Shown: piece by piece, positions 1 to 5,443 of the stretch
How the letters are laid out: every line of letters starts with the position of its first letter
Position numbering within the stretch: the stretch's first letter is position 1
Assembly: GCF_024235615.1 (NCBI RefSeq)
Contig: NZ_JACKMB010000002.1
Origin: Thauera sp.
GTDB taxonomy: Bacteria > Pseudomonadota > Gammaproteobacteria > Burkholderiales > Rhodocyclaceae
Strand: one strand, 5' to 3'
Length of the DNA: 64,000 nt
Program-made: the position numbers and the translations under genes
Notes under the pieces: generated by a model
Told to the model about the DNA's origin: nothing
The model's input: the letters and a program-made list of their open reading frames with translations, nothing else
Databases searched by the model: none

Positions 1-301
1 AGTCTGAACCGAGGACGTGACTGCCGACTTCCGAGTGGGGCGGCAAGTCGTGCGGTGTGCGAAACAGGTTCGTGCCGCGGGCGTCGGGGTGGATTGGCTT
101 GAGGGTATGGGTGACGATCTGGATCTGCGCGACGCGCCGGGCGGCGTCTGCAAGCCAGGTTTCGCGTGCATGCTGGGCGATCAGCTCGGGACGTTTCGGG
201 TCGTCGGCTGGCAGCTTGTCGAGCTTGGCATCGAGGCGCTCCTTGAGGAAGCGCTCGATCGTGGTGCGGAAAGCCGCCTGGCGTTCGGTGCGAGTAGTCA
301 T
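1..301 (-). CDS. csy1: Type I-F Cascade large subunit Cas8f/Csy1, 5' fragment running off the left edge
   Basis: Manual translation from ATG at 301 (SD GGGAG about 8 nt upstream): MTTRTERQAAFRTTIERFLKERLDAKLDKLPADDPKRPELIAQHARETWLADAARRVAQIQIVTHTLKPIHPDARGTNL. This matches the recalled Csy1 N-terminal signature WLxDAARRVxQxQxVTHxLKxIHPDARGxNL and lies in the expected position downstream of cas2-3. Not in the ORF track. Confidence 0.9.
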   Translation of the reverse strand, partial: MTTRTERQAAFRTTIERFLKERLDAKLDKLPADDPKRPELIAQHARETWLADAARRVAQIQIVTHTLKPIHPDARGTNLFRTPHDLPPHSEVGSHVLGSD

Positions 302-400
302 GGTGCGGCTCCCGAGGCACGATGACGGACATCTGAACTCGATTGCATTGCGCTTCTCCCCTTGGTCAAATGGTGACGCTGGTTCAATTTGAGGTGATCT

Positions 401-691
401 ATGAAGCCATCGGATGTACTGCGGCGCCGTGTTGACACGATCCGTGAAGCCGCGGCGCGATTCCATGTACGCAATCCTCGGGTGTTCGGCTCGGTCCTGC
501 ATGGGACCGACAAGGATGGCAGCGACCTCGATCTGCTTGTCGATCCACAACCTGGAACAACCTTGTTCGATCTTGGCGGGCTGCAGGTTGAGCTGGAAGA
601 TATGTTGGGCGTGCGGGTTGACGTGGTGACGCCGGGTGACTTGCCGGCTCGAATTCGAGCGCAAGTTATTGCCGAGGCCCGTCCGCTATGA
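401..691 (+). CDS. Minimal nucleotidyltransferase (MNT) antitoxin, MntA-like
   Basis: 96 aa with an exact GS-X10-DxD motif (GSVLHGTDKDGSDLD). SD GAGGTG at 391-396. ATGA overlap with the downstream HEPN gene. Confidence 0.92.
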   Translation: MKPSDVLRRRVDTIREAAARFHVRNPRVFGSVLHGTDKDGSDLDLLVDPQPGTTLFDLGGLQVELEDMLGVRVDVVTPGDLPARIRAQVIAEARPL

Positions 692-1059
692 GCGGTGCCG
701 ATCGGCTGATGCTTTGGATTGAGCAGATGGCCGAGGCGACCGGGAGCGCCTGCAGCTATGTCGAAGGGGTGGATTTTGCCGCCTTCGAACGTGACAAGCG
801 CACCCAGCAGGCTGTCGTCCTGAATCTGCTGTTGATCGGGGAGGCGGCAGCGCGGATCGTTGAAGGCGCGCCCGGATTCGTCGCTGCGCACCCAGAGATT
901 CCCTGGGCACCGATGCGGGGCATGCGCAACCGGATCGCCCACGGTTACTTCGAGCTGGATATCAAGGTCGTATGGGATACGGTCGGCAGCGCTTTGCCTG
1001 CACTCTCCCGACAGTTGCCGGGACTCTTGCGCGCAGCCGTTGAATTTGGCGCCGAATGA
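688..1059 (+). CDS. HEPN RNase toxin, HepT/DUF86-like
   Basis: 123 aa with AVVLNLLLIGEAA and the R-X4-H-X-Y motif RNRIAHGY, typical of DUF86/HepT. Translationally coupled to the MNT gene. Confidence 0.92.
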   Translation: MSGADRLMLWIEQMAEATGSACSYVEGVDFAAFERDKRTQQAVVLNLLLIGEAAARIVEGAPGFVAAHPEIPWAPMRGMRNRIAHGYFELDIKVVWDTVGSALPALSRQLPGLLRAAVEFGAE

Positions 1060-1085
1060 ACGCGCTTTAGGTGGCGATGCATTCA

Positions 1086-4000
1086 TCACCGGCTCCTCGT
1101 GAAACCCAGCGCAGGATGAAAACGCCAGCCCTGCATGCTCTCGGGTAGCGTCACGGTGCCGTAGCGTTCAGCGCACGCCTCCAATGTCATGCCGCGTTCC
1201 TGGGCGAGCTCGGTCAATGCCGCCATGTAGTCGGTGACACCCCACGGCGCCATGCGTGCGCCGGCGAGTTGTTCATCCGGGATGCGATGGTTGAGGCTGT
1301 CGTCTATCTTCACGTACAGGTTGCGATAGCGAGCCGGGCCCGGCTCGACGCGGTAGAGCGCGTAATCCTCGGCCTCTTCATCCGGTAGCAGGACAAGGTC
1401 CACTTTCGGTTCGGGATCATGGCGGAACGGTTGCTGCTGCGGCAGCACCGCGGTCAGCGAGACGCCGCGCTTCAGCCAGTGGGTGGTGGCGTTGATGTAC
1501 GCCTTTGGTCGCACGCCCTTCTTGAGTTTGTGGGCACTGATCACTTCGTTGTTTGATTGCGGGCGCATCTGGTTCTGGATGCGCGCGTGCTCAAGGTCGA
1601 CCAGCCGTGCCGTAGGCTGTAGCGCCTCGTCTGGTTTCGGCAGGATGCGCGGGCGGGCGTCGATGACGTCGCGTTGCCCGGCCTCGAGCAGGTCAGCAAG
1701 AGAATGGGACCGCAGCTTGAAACGCGGCTCTTCGGTCTCGAAGCCCGGGGTGCAATAGGCGGCTTTGCCGGGACGCTCGAAGTGACGAAGGTTGCAGTCC
1801 AGTACGCGGATGTTGGGCGTGTCGACTGCGCCGGGGCGGTGACGGCGCACCCGGCCGGCGAGCTGGATCAGTGAGCGCATCGAGGAGGGTTCGACCACGG
1901 CCCAGTCGTAATCGTGGTCGCGCCCGACCTCGGTGACCGGACTGCCGAGCACGATGAAGAGGTGGTCGGACTCGGGGTTGGCGTCGAGGCGGCTGCGGAT
2001 CTCGGGTCGAGCAAAGACCGCGTCGGGCGAGCGGCGGTCGAGTGTGGCGTCCAACTGGTGCTCGATGGCCGAGCGGATCAGCAGCGGATACTGCGAGTGG
2101 TAGGTGCAGAGGTGAATCTGCGTGTTTTCGGGCGCGCCGAGCGCGTAGAGGGCCAGTGCGACGTCGACCAGTGGGGCGATGTTCGCCATGCGGATCAAGC
2201 CGAAGCTGACGCGTTTGCCTGACACCGGGTCGACGGAATAGTGAGCGGAGTGCAGGACTAGCGCGGCCTCGCGCAGGATCGTTGCCATCGTGGAGCGCAG
2301 CGTGTCGCGTGGCTTGCCGGCGAGCGGGAGTGCGATGAGCTCGGCTCGCCGCCGCACGGCCTCCTTGGCGAGATGCGCATGACGGCGTCGGGCGAAATCG
2401 AGCTGGCGTTCGGCGAATGCATCGCCATCGGCGCAGTCGTGTCGCATCTGGTCGAACTCGTCCACCCACATGCAGCACACCTCTGGCGCAGCGCCTGGAC
2501 GCTCGCCACGATTGCGCTGGAACCAGCGCCGTCCGTCGAGATAGGCCTCGAACAGGCCTTGCACCAGCGCGGGCGGTAGCGTGGCGGAGGACAAGAGCAC
2601 GCGACTTCCAAGCAGGCCGGCCCAGTGAACGAGGCGGGCGAGGGCAGGGAGATCGTCGATGTCGAAGTCGTCGGGTTCGTCGAGCACCAGGTCGCCGCTC
2701 ATCAGGCGCAGCATGGGTGCGATCTGCCCGCCACCGCGCTGGCTCTCGGTGGCCGGGATCAGGTGATCGATGGTGCAGACGAGCAGCGGTGCGGCGAGCA
2801 GCTTGTGGATCCTTGGATCGTGTGACAGGCGCTGCAGCAGCGGATGGGCGATGTTGCCCTCGTAGATCACGCCGGCGTCTTTTGGCAGCAATGCCTGGGT
2901 CGAGGCCGATCCGCTTTGCTCGGCGAGTTGCTCGTAGTGCTCGAAGAGCTCCCGGTTTGCTGCGCCGCCCACGCGTATCGCAAGTGCATCATCGGAGAGC
3001 TGGAGTTCATCGCGGAACGCGCGGCCGGTCTGCAGCGTGAGGGTGCGCAGGCCGAGGGCGAAGGCGCAGCGCAGCCCGCGCGACGGGTCGGCGAGCGCGT
3101 TCATGATGCGGGCGTTGGCGAGGGTCTTGCCGCAGCCGGTGGAGGCCATATTGACGATGAATGCGCCCTGCCGGGATGCGGCTTCGCGCATCGCCTCGGC
3201 GAGGTCCGCCGCGCGGTCCTGCCAGCGGAAGCGGGGATCGGCACTGCGTTTGCGCAGGCCCTTGTGGCGGACCAGTCGTGGCAGGTGATGTTCGAAACCG
3301 GGTAGGGCATGGGCGACCATGCCGGCGTGCCGGGCGACGCCGAGCAAATGTTCGTCGAGGGTCTGATTGAACTTGCCGGTCTTGCGGTCGGTATTGGCGA
3401 ACAGCGGATAGGCCGGGTTGAGGTCGGAGCGCGCCGCTGGATCGGTGAGGCTGGAGTAGTGGTGATCGGCCAGCATCAGGGCGAGGCGGCCGAGATGCAT
3501 GACGTGCGGGTCTTGCAGCCAGTCTCGAGAGTCGGCACCCTGCACGATCGTCAACATGCGGCGTGCCACGCGCGCGGCGCGCTTTTTCCATGCGGCGGTC
3601 GTGATCGGTAGCCCTTGCGGAAATTTCCAATAGGGCTCAATCACTGCGCGGTCCTTGCTGTCCGCAAGTTCGTTCCAGTTTGCGTCCACCTGCTCCAGCA
3701 GCCGGTCCAGTTGTGCGGCGTGCAGGTTCCGCACACGCGCTCCGAGCCACTGCCAACGTCCGGCATCGTCCTTGGTCGGCATGACAGGCAGACGGTGATG
3801 GGTCAGCACGAGCCAGGCAATGACCCGTGCCAGCGGCGGAAGCGTGCCAAACGGCTTGTTGTCTTGCGCAGCGGGGTCGAGTCCGTCACACAGCCCGTGC
3901 TCGCCCAGGCCCACGGTCCAACTCTCGTCGTCGTCCCCCGACGGGTTGATGAGCCGCTCGAGCCATTCGGCGTCGCCGCTGTCGCCGACGAAGGCCTGGA

Positions 4001-4469
4001 ACAGGCGTAGCGATACCCACTCGTGACGATATAGGTTGCGCTCGATGGGTCCCTTTGCCTGCAGCCTTTGCTGAAAGGCGAGGCAGGCCTTGCCCAGGTC
4101 GTGCAGCAGTGCCGCAAGCGAGGCCAGCAGGTGGATCAATGCGAGGCTGTGCCAGTCGTTCTCGGATTCCGTCCGCAGTACGTTGCGTCGCGTCGTGTTG
4201 GTCGGCGTCGCGCCCCGGTCGCTGAACTGCCGCGCATCGCCGACGATCCACAGCAACTCGCTATGGTCCTTGCTGCGAATCCAGTGGCAGGCCACTGCGG
4301 TGTTCTTGCGGGCGGTCTTGCGCAGCAGGCGGTGCAGCGTTTCCAGTCCGGCCCGAGTGATGGGCGTCTGCCAGGTGCGATCCCCCCGGCGCTCGGCGAA
4401 TTGGTCGAGGATACGCCGCGTCTCGGTGAGCGCGTTCTTCGTGCATTGAGAGATGAGGAGCACGTTCAT
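1086..4469 (-). CDS. cas3: Type I-F Cas2-Cas3 fusion nuclease-helicase
   Basis: 1127 aa. N-terminal Cas2-like region (MNVLLISQCTKNALTETRRILDQFAERRGDRTWQT), HD motifs (LLHDLGK, THH, LADH), Walker A ASTGCGKT, Walker B DEPD and motif VI QLAGRVRRHR. Overlaps the cas1 stop. Confidence 0.96.
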   Translation of the reverse strand: MNVLLISQCTKNALTETRRILDQFAERRGDRTWQTPITRAGLETLHRLLRKTARKNTAVACHWIRSKDHSELLWIVGDARQFSDRGATPTNTTRRNVLRTESENDWHSLALIHLLASLAALLHDLGKACLAFQQRLQAKGPIERNLYRHEWVSLRLFQAFVGDSGDAEWLERLINPSGDDDESWTVGLGEHGLCDGLDPAAQDNKPFGTLPPLARVIAWLVLTHHRLPVMPTKDDAGRWQWLGARVRNLHAAQLDRLLEQVDANWNELADSKDRAVIEPYWKFPQGLPITTAAWKKRAARVARRMLTIVQGADSRDWLQDPHVMHLGRLALMLADHHYSSLTDPAARSDLNPAYPLFANTDRKTGKFNQTLDEHLLGVARHAGMVAHALPGFEHHLPRLVRHKGLRKRSADPRFRWQDRAADLAEAMREAASRQGAFIVNMASTGCGKTLANARIMNALADPSRGLRCAFALGLRTLTLQTGRAFRDELQLSDDALAIRVGGAANRELFEHYEQLAEQSGSASTQALLPKDAGVIYEGNIAHPLLQRLSHDPRIHKLLAAPLLVCTIDHLIPATESQRGGGQIAPMLRLMSGDLVLDEPDDFDIDDLPALARLVHWAGLLGSRVLLSSATLPPALVQGLFEAYLDGRRWFQRNRGERPGAAPEVCCMWVDEFDQMRHDCADGDAFAERQLDFARRRHAHLAKEAVRRRAELIALPLAGKPRDTLRSTMATILREAALVLHSAHYSVDPVSGKRVSFGLIRMANIAPLVDVALALYALGAPENTQIHLCTYHSQYPLLIRSAIEHQLDATLDRRSPDAVFARPEIRSRLDANPESDHLFIVLGSPVTEVGRDHDYDWAVVEPSSMRSLIQLAGRVRRHRPGAVDTPNIRVLDCNLRHFERPGKAAYCTPGFETEEPRFKLRSHSLADLLEAGQRDVIDARPRILPKPDEALQPTARLVDLEHARIQNQMRPQSNNEVISAHKLKKGVRPKAYINATTHWLKRGVSLTAVLPQQQPFRHDPEPKVDLVLLPDEEAEDYALYRVEPGPARYRNLYVKIDDSLNHRIPDEQLAGARMAPWGVTDYMAALTELAQERGMTLEACAERYGTVTLPESMQGWRFHPALGFTRSR

Positions 4470-5443
4470 GCGGCGTGCTTTCCGGTTTCGGTGGCGATGG
4501 CCTTCAACGTGTCGATCATGTAGTCCAGGGCTTCCGCCTGCACCAAGGTCTCGACACAGCGTTCGCGGAACTCCTGCTCGCTATCGCCGCGCATAGCGGA
4601 AACGAAAGCCTGCGGGAGGATGAGCGCATCCTTGATCAGGTCGGCAACGTCGAATACCAGGCCGCCGCGGCGCGTCTTGCCGTGCAGCACGGCGAGACCG
4701 TGCGGGAGGCCGAGCACCCAGGTGGCAGTGGCGCCCAGCCCATAGGCGAGATAGTTGCCGTGGTCCAGGAAGCGGTTCGCCGGATCTCCACCGCTGCCAC
4801 CCTTGGCGCGCGTGAAGTCCCCGTAACCGGTGGCATCGCATGCAAGCCGGAACAGCGTCTTGGTAAGACGGGCTTCCTCGGTGAGGAGAGCCGTGTTGTC
4901 CGGTGCAGCGAGCATGGTGCGCCGGGAGGCCGCCAGGGCGGTTTCGAGTCGCTCGCGGGGAACGTCGAAGCCTGCTTCCGAAAGCGCGCGATTGTCGATC
5001 CAGTGTCCGGTGATGCGTGTCAGCCGCGCCTGCTGGAGGGCTTTGGCCGCGCGGAGTCGCAATGCGTCGTCGAACCAGAAGCGTACCCACGGCTGCAGGT
5101 ACTCGGTTGGTCGGTACTCGCTTTGCGGCGAGAACCAAGCGACGTCGAAGTCGACTTCGTTGGCGCTGAAGAGTGGCGTACCGCCGCCACCGCAGAAACC
5201 CACCATAACGCCTGCCTTGGCGAGTTCCCTCATGGCGGCCTGGGTGATGGAGGTTCCCGTTCCGAGCAGAAGGGTCGTGGTGTTGGCAATCGGGATGTTC
5301 CAGTACGCCGACCGGCTGCCCTCGTCGGTGACGTATTCCACCCGGCCGCCATTCACCAGCACGCGGCAATGCTCCAGGTAGTACAGGTTGGCGCGCTTGG
5401 AGTGGAGGATGGTCTTGAGGTCGGATGGCGAGATTTCGTGCAT
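4466..5443 (-). CDS. cas1: Type I-F CRISPR integrase Cas1
   Basis: Start placed at ATG 5443 (SD GGAG upstream): MHEISPSDLKTILHSKRANLYYLEHCRVLVNGGRVEY, with NRFLDHGNYLAYG and HGKTRRGGLVFDVAD motifs typical of I-F Cas1. 325 aa. Confidence 0.96.
   Translation of the reverse strand: MHEISPSDLKTILHSKRANLYYLEHCRVLVNGGRVEYVTDEGSRSAYWNIPIANTTTLLLGTGTSITQAAMRELAKAGVMVGFCGGGGTPLFSANEVDFDVAWFSPQSEYRPTEYLQPWVRFWFDDALRLRAAKALQQARLTRITGHWIDNRALSEAGFDVPRERLETALAASRRTMLAAPDNTALLTEEARLTKTLFRLACDATGYGDFTRAKGGSGGDPANRFLDHGNYLAYGLGATATWVLGLPHGLAVLHGKTRRGGLVFDVADLIKDALILPQAFVSAMRGDSEQEFRERCVETLVQAEALDYMIDTLKAIATETGKHAA

Follow-up and report, generated by a model that had tools for sequence, protein, structure and literature searches.

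Organization of the interrupted cas locus

The stretch analysed here comprises 64,000 nucleotides from Thauera sp. (contig NZ_JACKMB010000002.1; hereafter the window). [quoted passage not shown] The gap between cas2-3 and csy1 (302..1085, 784 nt) encloses two plus-strand genes, mntA and hepT. This gene order, including complete motifs in both proteins of the toxin-antitoxin (TA) pair, had been proposed in a first-pass annotation and was borne out by ORFs, family scans and translation. The gap length of 785 bp given there needs a slight correction, and its coordinates (302-1088) cover the gap together with the stop codon of cas2-3.

Table 1. Coordinates of genes and other features at the cas2-3/csy1 junction.
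Feature	Position	Strand	Remarks
csy1 (cas8f), 5' part	1..301	-	ATG at 301..299; runs beyond window start; complete protein 454 aa
Antisense ORF to the TA pair	298..1089	-	263 codons, stop-free; judged not a gene
Divergent control region, csy1/mntA	302..400	.	99 bp
38-bp core GAACnnGATTGCATTnCnnTnCTCCCCTTGGTCAAATG	335..372	.	near-invariant in alignment of six loci
mntA, minimal nucleotidyltransferase antitoxin	401..691	+	96 aa; PF01909 NTP_transf_2, E 1.6e-8; PF18765
hepT, HEPN RNase toxin	688..1059	+	123 aa; PF01934 HepT-like, E 7e-25
Spacer between convergent hepT and cas2-3 stops	1060..1085	.	26 bp
cas2-3 (type I-F Cas3f)	1086..4469	-	1127 aa; TIGR02562, 1309 bits
cas1 (I-F)	4466..5443	-	TIGR03637, 504 bits (residues 70-375 of long ORF)

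Csy1 scores 412 bits against TIGR02564 (cut-off 169), and Cas2-3 shows the Pfam domains Cas3_I-F_Cas2, Cas3_HD and C-terminal. The open frame of cas1 reaches up to 5617; translation likely starts at the Met at 5443, which would give a protein of 325 aa, matching the 325-aa Cas1 of relatives. DNA upstream of the window (L001) encodes Csy1, Csy2, Csy3 and Cas6f, each above its NCBIfam cut-off; beyond these genes lies a CRISPR array whose I-F repeat is GTTCACTGCCGGATAGGCAGCTCAGAAA. The locus belongs to type I-F1, since all six of its signature proteins (Cas1f, the Cas2-3 fusion, Csy1, Csy2, Csy3 and Cas6f) exceed their NCBIfam cut-offs and an array of I-F repeats is present. This array is oddly rich in deletions, for which assembly error and real decay are both conceivable; the ORFs in its large interruptions gave no Pfam match except for one IS110 transposase. 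No terminator-like hairpin was found in the spacer between hepT and cas2-3.

Identity of the mntA-hepT pair

MntA exceeds the cut-offs of both PF01909 and PF18765, and its translation contains the complete nucleotidyltransferase motif GS-x10-DxD (G30-S31, D42-L-D44). Its gene is preceded by a Shine-Dalgarno sequence (GAGG, 391-394). In comparisons with PDB and PADLOC it matched 1WOT_A (E 1.4e-16) and the defence-candidate family PDC-S09 (E 1e-29), respectively. HepT reaches 87 bits against PF01934 (cut-off 23.5) and contains the Rx4HxY motif (R80-NRIA-H85-G-Y87), which is invariant across 40 homologues. A phmmer search of HepT against PDB found nothing, and HepT had no match in PADLOC. A profile built from the 40 HepT sequences matched S. 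oneidensis HepT (5YEP_B, E 6.6e-5), and the AF2 model of HepT (pLDDT 92) has HepT/HEPN toxins as its best 17 Foldseek matches. The antitoxin gene comes first and the start of hepT overlaps the stop of mntA through ATGA; an antitoxin-first arrangement of two overlapping or adjacent genes is kept in all relatives. Both genes are under purifying selection, with pN/pS of 0.04-0.12 for mntA and 0.08-0.28 for hepT. On sequence evidence the MNT-HEPN pair in the gap is type VII-like, genuine and intact, and it lies antisense within a complete I-F locus. Scores against the NCBIfam equivalogs, 36.4 bits for MntA (NF047752) and 35.5 bits for HepT (NF047751), stay under the cut-offs of 60, and the pair falls within the superfamily and Pfam HepT-like but outside the curated MntA/HepT equivalogs. 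The host genome has two more HepT-like genes outside the cas locus.

The gap can also be read on the minus strand, where the stop-free frame opposite the TA pair has GTGA and ATGA overlaps at its ends; on such a reading this ORF would be the true gene of the gap, with translational coupling to its neighbours cas2-3 and csy1, and the TA genes would be spurious. We consider this extremely improbable. The frame is broken in all six relatives checked (L004-L007, L072 and L075), and its pN/pS is 1.0-1.9 over hepT and always worse than that of the sense frame over mntA, while evidence from family, motif and fold strongly backs the genes on the plus strand. Over mntA, moreover, the antisense frame uses the same wobble position as the sense frame, and in GC-rich DNA long antisense ORFs usually arise in this way. 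The interrupted frames and pN/pS led us to reject the ORF as a high-GC artefact.

The cas2-3/csy1 junction in related loci

Eight of the 10 HepT relatives examined for context (61-80% identity) lie at exactly the cas2-3/csy1 junction, and the flanks outside these loci vary (PAS/GGDEF, phage tail, TIR, IclR, WYL, AMP-binding). An identical arrangement is seen in T. mechernichensis, P. lacus, Zoogloea, a Competibacter-labelled MAG and several metagenome contigs; apart from that MAG, the named genera are Thauera, Pseudothauera and Zoogloea. A 55%-identical copy in Pseudoduganella, beside an IS3 transposase, is the only truly unlinked homologue, and a HepT search of the genome contigs returned just two distant, uninformative matches. 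A comparison of I-F loci at the cas3-csy1 interval, as advised in the first-pass annotation, found the pair to be recurrent: among 53 species-level junctions, 6 contain the intact pair and 4 contain MntA only. The comparison of TA and cas trees that had likewise been advised showed them to be congruent, with co-varying TA and Cas distances (Spearman r=0.90, Mantel p=0.0002). The pair is thus not a peculiarity of one genome with homologues at random loci, the outcome named beforehand as refuting, because the association is recurrent and the pair co-diverges with cas.

The linkage of the TA pair to type I-F is not obligate, as close relatives have shed hepT or the entire pair. In one close relative without the TA (L029) the gap measures 92 bp, another (L030) has a deletion scar that retains the first mntA codons, and four loci (L027, L067, L038 and L039) have the antitoxin only, hepT being gone. 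The opposite state is found in two Thauera MAGs (L008 and L009), where the TA pair is intact and constrained between a csy1 pseudogene with in-frame stops and a cas2-3 stub of which about 40 codons are left. In these ghost loci the TA pair protects itself better than it does the cas genes. They were considered as standalone homologues at a random locus, and this was rejected, as their flanks are cas remnants.

The junction is a hot spot for cargo. Other I-F loci carry YefM-YoeB, FitA-PIN, HipBA or RelE-HTH at the same place, and in sister I-F loci such alternative TA cargo often sits just 3' of a self-targeting mini-CRISPR. Directly upstream of mntA, seven relatives (L068, L071, L077, L046, L027, L067 and L038) have a mini-array of the form psiR-26 nt spacer-psiR. 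Between this spacer and a CC-flanked site lying about 100 nt upstream, 14-21 of the 26 positions agree; mismatches occur at 6, 12 and 18, and from locus to locus the spacer and its target change together. In these relatives mntA begins 8-24 nt after the mini-array hairpin, a short distance suggestive of genuine regulatory coupling in the ancestral form. In L040, the FitA-PIN cargo is placed in the same way with respect to a repeat-like element.

No repeat-like mini-array was found in the gap of the window at up to 7-8 mismatches, and 302..400 contains no CRISPR repeat-like sequence. The window's closest relatives (L004-L007, L072, L075 and L034-L036) have no mini-array either. The hallmark of a CreTA-like circuit, psiR-spacer-psiR beside the TA with a PAM-flanked partial target, is accordingly absent from the window. 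What the control region does contain is the 38-bp core, near-invariant in an alignment of six loci whose synonymous sites are near saturation; its csy-proximal half is also retained in the TA-less L029 and in the antitoxin-only L039. Within the core we predict a csy promoter on the minus strand (-35 TTGACC, 369..364; -10 TGCAAT, 347..342) and, overlapping it as a mirror image, an mntA promoter on the plus strand (-35 TTGCAT, 343..348; -10 TCAAAT, 366..371). A strict consensus scan of 150-1300 gave neither promoter nor terminator, and the putative hexamers are therefore assigned from conservation.

Persistence of the pair and possible coupling to CRISPR-Cas

The gap is probably occupied by an autonomous, functional type VII-like TA operon, a long-lived addictive cargo of a kind reported before for CRISPR loci, which the CRISPR machinery itself does not need and which adds no new component to immunity. 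By homology, HepT would be an RNase of the HEPN type, with an Rx4HxY site that MntA inactivates by adding AMP units to Tyr87, an AMPylation extrapolated from structures that are about 20% identical. The pair belongs to one MntA-HepT sublineage, which entered the cas2-3/csy1 junction a single time, in an I-F lineage centred on Rhodocyclaceae, and has thereafter been inherited, and moved horizontally, along with the cas genes. Its persistence probably results mainly from addiction of the DNA that carries it; deletions removing the pair would be counter-selected, and the middle of the cas locus would be stabilised as a by-product. The mini-array ancestrally present upstream of mntA has been lost in this genome, and with it any mini-CRISPR wiring to Cascade, leaving a compact 99-bp region in which TA and csy promoters probably overlap. 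Some observations sit less easily with plain cargo: the long co-divergence, with five unrelated TA families at the junction, could mean a selected guard function, mntA lies close behind the mini-array hairpin in the relatives that have one, and the 38-bp core common with the csy promoter could couple both operons here.

The pair might indeed guard the CRISPR locus, being coupled to Cascade/csy such that loss of Csy or an anti-CRISPR frees HepT and causes dormancy or death, which would make the pair an analogue of CreTA built from proteins. We regard this as possible, if rather unlikely. Long linkage to I-F with co-divergence would fit, as would the self-matching mini-arrays directly 5' of mntA in the seven relatives, on account of which the TA would be transcribed through the mini-array, and the similarly placed FitA-PIN of L040. 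Shmakov et al. 2023 (10.1101/2023.03.03.530964) proposed circuits of exactly such a type. In S. oneidensis, MntA binds the promoter from which it is itself transcribed (PMC4621449), and in the window the invariant core is common to the csy and mntA control regions. Against a guard, neither the window nor its closest relatives retain a mini-array, derepression of a bicistronic antitoxin-toxin operon does not on its own release the toxin, the ghost loci indicate that cells survive loss of cas with the TA present, and hepT was lost in several lineages whose cas genes remain intact. The suggestion in the first-pass annotation that the pair addicts the cell to the cas locus, or forms a layer coupled to Cascade, is thus favoured by recurrence and co-divergence but weakened by the non-obligate linkage, the ghost loci and the want of a mini-array in the window.

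A more elaborate version of coupling, which we think unlikely, is that the ancestral mntA-hepT was driven by the promoter of a self-targeting, crRNA-like mini-array and freed by Cas6f cleavage at the second pseudo-repeat, and was in this way gated by Csy. The window would then show a derived state, the 38-bp bidirectional core having taken the place of the mini-array, with mutually exclusive csy and TA promoters, and the TA would still sense or set csy expression. Quite improbable, in our judgement, is an independent abortive-infection or anti-phage module that merely clusters with CRISPR-Cas, HepT being triggered by phage (e.g., by depletion of MntA or by de-AMPylation). HEPN RNases often serve as effectors of abortive infection, MntA matches a PADLOC defence-candidate family, and the outside flanks of relatives include TIR and phage genes. 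HepT, however, lacks a PADLOC match, and we are aware of no canonical HepT/MntA pair with a reported effect on phage defence; simple clustering in an island also fails to explain a fixed intra-operon position over long divergence, and the two further HepT-like genes of this genome sit outside the cas locus. Addictive cargo remains the reading that we prefer.

Comparison with known systems

The experimentally characterized HEPN-MNT pair of S. oneidensis is addictive: it stabilises plasmids, and deletion of the antitoxin alone is lethal (PMC4621449). It resembles the pair described here in its antitoxin-first overlapping bicistron, in the MNT GS-x10-DxD and HEPN Rx4HxY motifs, and in the fold of HepT (Foldseek TM 0.62-0.66, probability 1.0; profile match given above). 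It differs in that sequence identity is only about 20% and the Shewanella pair does not lie in a cas operon; MntA is also minimal here (closest solved structure, Thermus 1WOT), compared with 139 aa in Shewanella. The HEPN-MNT toxin of Aphanizomenon flos-aquae (Songailiene et al. 2020; 7AE2, 7AE6, 7AE8 and 7AE9; Foldseek ranks 3-17) has the same fold as HepT, and the pair reportedly lies within a type I-D CRISPR locus. It thus shares with the present case a HEPN-MNT pair physically inside a type I cas locus, whereas the subtype (I-D versus I-F) and phylum differ and the sequences are distant. We know of no published co-divergence analysis of the Aphanizomenon pair with cas genes.

TA modules in cas loci are thought to enforce CRISPR dependence or to punish phages that disable CRISPR; for protein TAs the support for either role is mostly statistical. 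The study of Shmakov et al. 2023 (10.1101/2023.03.03.530964) reports significant TA enrichment in I-F1, and also in I-B, I-E and I-D, describes TA cargo beside mini-arrays at cargo-shuffling hot spots, and puts forward addiction-circuit and abortive-infection hypotheses. Protein TAs inside type I cas loci, and hot spots with 'empty' and mini-array-only relatives, are common to both studies, and our Rhodocyclaceae survey reproduces the cargo patterns reported there. The study illustrates I-D loci and, in its accessible text, names no I-F MntA-HepT lineage; the window differs in having lost the mini-array. The first-pass annotation knew of no described I-F example. A literature search found no paper on this particular I-F-linked MntA-HepT lineage; TA cargo in I-F1, and the hypotheses attached to it, had already been reported, and therefore the novelty of the window pair is limited. 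New relative to the earlier study are the co-divergence and the ghost locus. A clean natural series is available in cultivable Thauera, Pseudothauera and Zoogloea: TA with mini-array, TA without mini-array (as in the window), antitoxin only, empty junction, and TA after cas decay. Comparing these states could tell directly whether stabilisation or regulation by the cargo extends to the cas locus or is confined to the cargo itself.

CreTA modules of types I-B and I-F (Li et al. 2021; P. aeruginosa CreTA1/2, 10.1101/2024.10.29.618823) consist of two RNAs, and their antitoxin requires Cascade. Like the pair in the window, CreTA is a small TA next to a type I effector operon, and dependence on cas has been proposed or shown for it. 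The window pair, in contrast, consists of two proteins, has an enzyme as antitoxin and is devoid of a repeat-like element. If the Csy-gated model were true, mntA-hepT would be a protein counterpart of CreTA.

The mntA-hepT pair and its cas locus

The gap between cas2-3 and csy1 is 784 nt long (302..1085) and holds two plus-strand genes, mntA and hepT, that overlap by ATGA. MntA carries the complete motif G30-S31-x10-D42-x-D44 and HepT the complete motif R80-x4-H85-x-Y87, the latter unchanged in 40 homologues, which confirms the first-pass annotation of an intact MNT-HEPN toxin-antitoxin (TA) pair with both motifs at this type I-F junction. MntA is similar to 1WOT, a minimal nucleotidyltransferase from Thermus (E 1.4e-16). 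A profile built from the 40 HepT homologues matches 5YEP_B, the HepT of S. oneidensis, at E 6.6e-5, and the motif is in register. With the AlphaFold model of HepT (pLDDT 92) as query, the 17 top-ranked Foldseek matches are all toxins of the HepT/HEPN type, from S. oneidensis and A. flos-aquae, with a TM of about 0.6. Both proteins score below the NCBIfam equivalog cut-offs, and are superfamily members outside the curated Shewanella-type equivalog. The pair is an intact operon under selection, with sense-frame pN/pS of 0.04-0.12 for mntA and 0.08-0.28 for hepT. Two more HepT-like genes are found in the same genome (G000), away from the cas locus.

A stop-free minus-strand ORF of 263 codons bridges cas2-3 and csy1. 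It was rejected as a real gene: the same frame has internal stops in six related loci, its pN/pS across hepT is 1.0-1.9, and across mntA, where it uses the same wobble position as the sense frame, its pN/pS is worse than that of the sense frame in every comparison, by a factor of about two. Selection acts on the TA genes and not on this ORF, which arises as a side effect of GC-rich coding sequence.

The window corresponds to C2:408321-472320 of G000. In the 12 kb upstream of it (L001), full-length Csy1, Csy2, Csy3 and Cas6f each score above the NCBIfam cut-off, and a CRISPR array lies beyond their genes. The three array units closest to cas6f have a regular 60-nt period; in the remaining ~40 the spacers measure 16-31 nt and the repeats carry internal deletions of 1-4 nt, and the array is broken by three large interruptions (279, 1239 and 1651 bp). 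This irregularity reflects either a poorly polished long-read consensus or genuine array decay. In Zoogloea-type loci a gene for a WYL/WCX-domain protein, possibly a transcriptional regulator of the I-F locus, directly adjoins cas1. A metagenome copy of the Competibacter-type locus (L070) has cas2-3 split into two overlapping ORFs (542 and 596 aa), as a result of a frameshift or else of misassembly.

Features of the window, its genome and related loci (L-numbers other than L001)
Feature	Location	Strand	Remarks
csy1, first 100 codons only	ATG at 301; window start falls inside csy1	-	
Stop-free ORF, 263 codons	298..1089	-	rejected as a gene
mntA, 96-aa nucleotidyltransferase	401..691	+	PF01909, PF18765
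hepT, 123-aa HepT-like HEPN protein	688..1059	+	PF01934, E 7e-25
cas2-3	1086..4469	-	clear I-F equivalog (NCBIfam)
cas1	4466..5443	-	clear I-F equivalog (NCBIfam)
CRISPR array after cas6f	L001:2491-8211 (= G000 C2:398811-404531)	-	I-F repeat; upstream of window
IS110-family transposase	L001:2580-4121	+	PF01548 + PF02371; inside CRISPR array
HepT-like gene	G000 C7:1804-2082	-	
HepT-like gene	G000 C12:22036-22317	-	
Mini-array module	L068:5338-5713; L071:5337-5713; L077:5322-5713		also in gaps of L046, L027, L067, L038
Ghost I-F locus	L008:1404-3023		Thauera sp. MAG GCA_054640155.1
Ghost I-F locus	L009:1399-3020		Thauera sp. MAG GCA_054607075.1
WYL/WCX-domain regulator gene	L077:10826-11806; L078:9621-10601		Zoogloea-type loci
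Split cas2-3	L070:6396-9768		Competibacter-type locus

Association with the I-F genes and its loss

A search with HepT gives 2909 homologues at E <= 1e-10; among those with a name, the closest belong to Thauera, Pseudothauera, Zoogloea and a Ca. Competibacter-labelled MAG. Genomic context was examined for ten, and eight of these (61-80% identity) have the identical layout of cas1, cas2-3, mntA-hepT on the opposite strand, and csy1-4. The eight loci have unrelated outer flanks, with genes for PAS/GGDEF sensors, phage tails, a TIR protein, IclR, a WYL regulator or an AMP-binding enzyme. A Pseudoduganella copy (55% identical) adjoins an IS3 transposase, without cas genes. An 80%-identical copy in two Thauera MAGs (L008 and L009) seemed to stand alone and to be unlinked to cas, until its flanks proved to be cas remnants.

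Identity to the window declines in parallel for Cas3, Csy1, MntA and HepT. The comparison of TA and cas trees proposed in the first-pass annotation was run on 12 loci: the trees are congruent, and pairwise distances of MntA+HepT and Cas3+Csy1 are correlated (Spearman r = 0.90, Mantel p = 0.0002). The position of the pair at the I-F junction is no coincidence. Given the shared layout, parallel identities, correlated distances and congruent trees, the pair was captured once and afterwards inherited and moved jointly with the I-F genes.

Nevertheless, the association is facultative and has been lost repeatedly. A Cas3 clade with 100/100 support unites the window with three TA-bearing loci, two that have MntA only (L027, L067) and one that is TA-less (L030). 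The last still has the mini-array upstream and the initial dozen mntA codons, a deletion scar. The same pattern is seen in a second Cas3 clade, where L046 has the intact pair, and L038 and L039 MntA only. In TA-less L029 (Cas3 77% and Csy1 83% identical to the window) the gap is just 92 bp and preserves the csy-proximal half of a window-type control region. Decay begins with loss of the toxin, as expected for TA modules.

In the two ghost loci, L008 and L009, the TA has outlasted its cas operon. About 1.6 kb aligns with the window's junction at 77% identity, flanked by genes for a sulfatase maturase and an MFS transporter. The TA is intact and constrained (mntA pN/pS 0.04 against I-F locus L072); csy1 is a pseudogene, shortened to about 245 codons and interrupted by indels and in-frame stops, and just the last ~40 codons of cas2-3 are left.

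Contents and control regions of the junction

Csy1 was searched in two sets of 401 genomes each, one from the window's order and one from its family (Rhodocyclaceae as defined by GTDB). This retrieved 58 cas2-3/csy1 junctions, 53 of them, including the window, with both gene ends. Scoring these intervals, as the first-pass annotation had also proposed, found intact MntA-HepT at 6/53 and MntA only at 4/53. Twenty gaps are empty (125 bp or less), and 15 are non-coding (150-580 bp), mostly with I-F repeat-like sequences. Other TA families occupy four (PhdYefM+YoeB in L026, FitA-RHH+PIN in L040, HTH+HipA in L025 and L037) and other cargo a further four, including a YhgA-like transposase (L013), an HTH protein and one of unclear content. 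In a class-level sample the same gap holds a RelE(PF06296)+HTH pair in a locus from an unrelated family (L083), DUF3800 proteins (L084, L085) and an ORF6N protein (L105). The junction is therefore a hot spot for cargo that strongly favours TA modules, of several families.

I-F repeat-like sequences antisense to cas are present in TA-free gaps of L010, L043, L044, L047, L051, L054, L059, L060 and L065, twice in L010 and four times in L043, both with a 60-nt period. In several TA-free loci they lie directly beside the cas2-3 stop codon.

Seven MntA-bearing relatives share a conserved csy1-mntA module of ~380 nt on the TA strand. Its elements, in order, are a CC-flanked site (CCTATTCAC...), a TAGACT resembling a -10 box, a degenerate repeat whose end is CTCAGAAA, a spacer of 26 nt that starts with TATTCGC, another repeat, this one with the I-F hairpin, and, 8-24 nt past this hairpin, the mntA start codon. 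The spacer matches the CC-PAM site ~100 nt upstream at 14-21 of 26 positions; mismatches cluster at positions 6, 12 and 18, and spacer and target co-vary between loci. The unit of spacer and two pseudo-repeats is a self-targeting I-F1 regulatory mini-array as described by Shmakov et al. 2023. In these relatives mntA-hepT must be co-transcribed with the mini-array, and the TA mRNA could be released from the joint transcript when Cas6f cuts it.

No repeat-like sequence was found in the gaps of the window and its nearest relatives, which instead have a region of 99-100 bp with a nearly invariant 38-bp core (335-372). A promoter consensus scan of the window's control region gave no match. The core may hold a minus-strand csy promoter (TTGACC-N16-TGCAAT), partly kept in TA-less L029 and in L039, and a plus-strand mntA promoter (TTGCAT-N17-TCAAAT) in mirror overlap with it.

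Possible role and published precedents

The pair is probably self-maintaining cargo that would stabilise the DNA around itself and ride with the I-F locus. By analogy with characterised relatives, HepT would be an RNase that MntA switches off by AMPylating Tyr87, and the pair would be addictive, as in S. oneidensis, where HepT-MntA stabilises plasmids, the antitoxin cannot be deleted alone, and MntA binds its own promoter (PMC4621449). That the pair is instead a dedicated, Cascade-coupled guard of the CRISPR locus seems unlikely; such a function is likelier in the relatives that have a mini-array than in the window. A stand-alone anti-phage role, to which the match of MntA to the PADLOC candidate PDC-S09 might point, is less likely still, and HepT is without any PADLOC match.

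For I-B, I-E, I-F1 and I-D systems, Shmakov et al. 2023 (10.1101/2023.03.03.530964) report a significant excess of TA genes in the interval between mini-arrays and cas genes. They describe such intervals as hot spots where genes are shuffled, and suggest a possible part for addiction or abortive-infection circuits. In P. aeruginosa I-F loci, RNA-based CreTA modules lie beside the csy operon (10.1101/2024.10.29.618823). A literature search for an I-F-linked MntA-HepT lineage like that of the window found no paper describing it. TA cargo in cas loci is a kind of element that has already been published.
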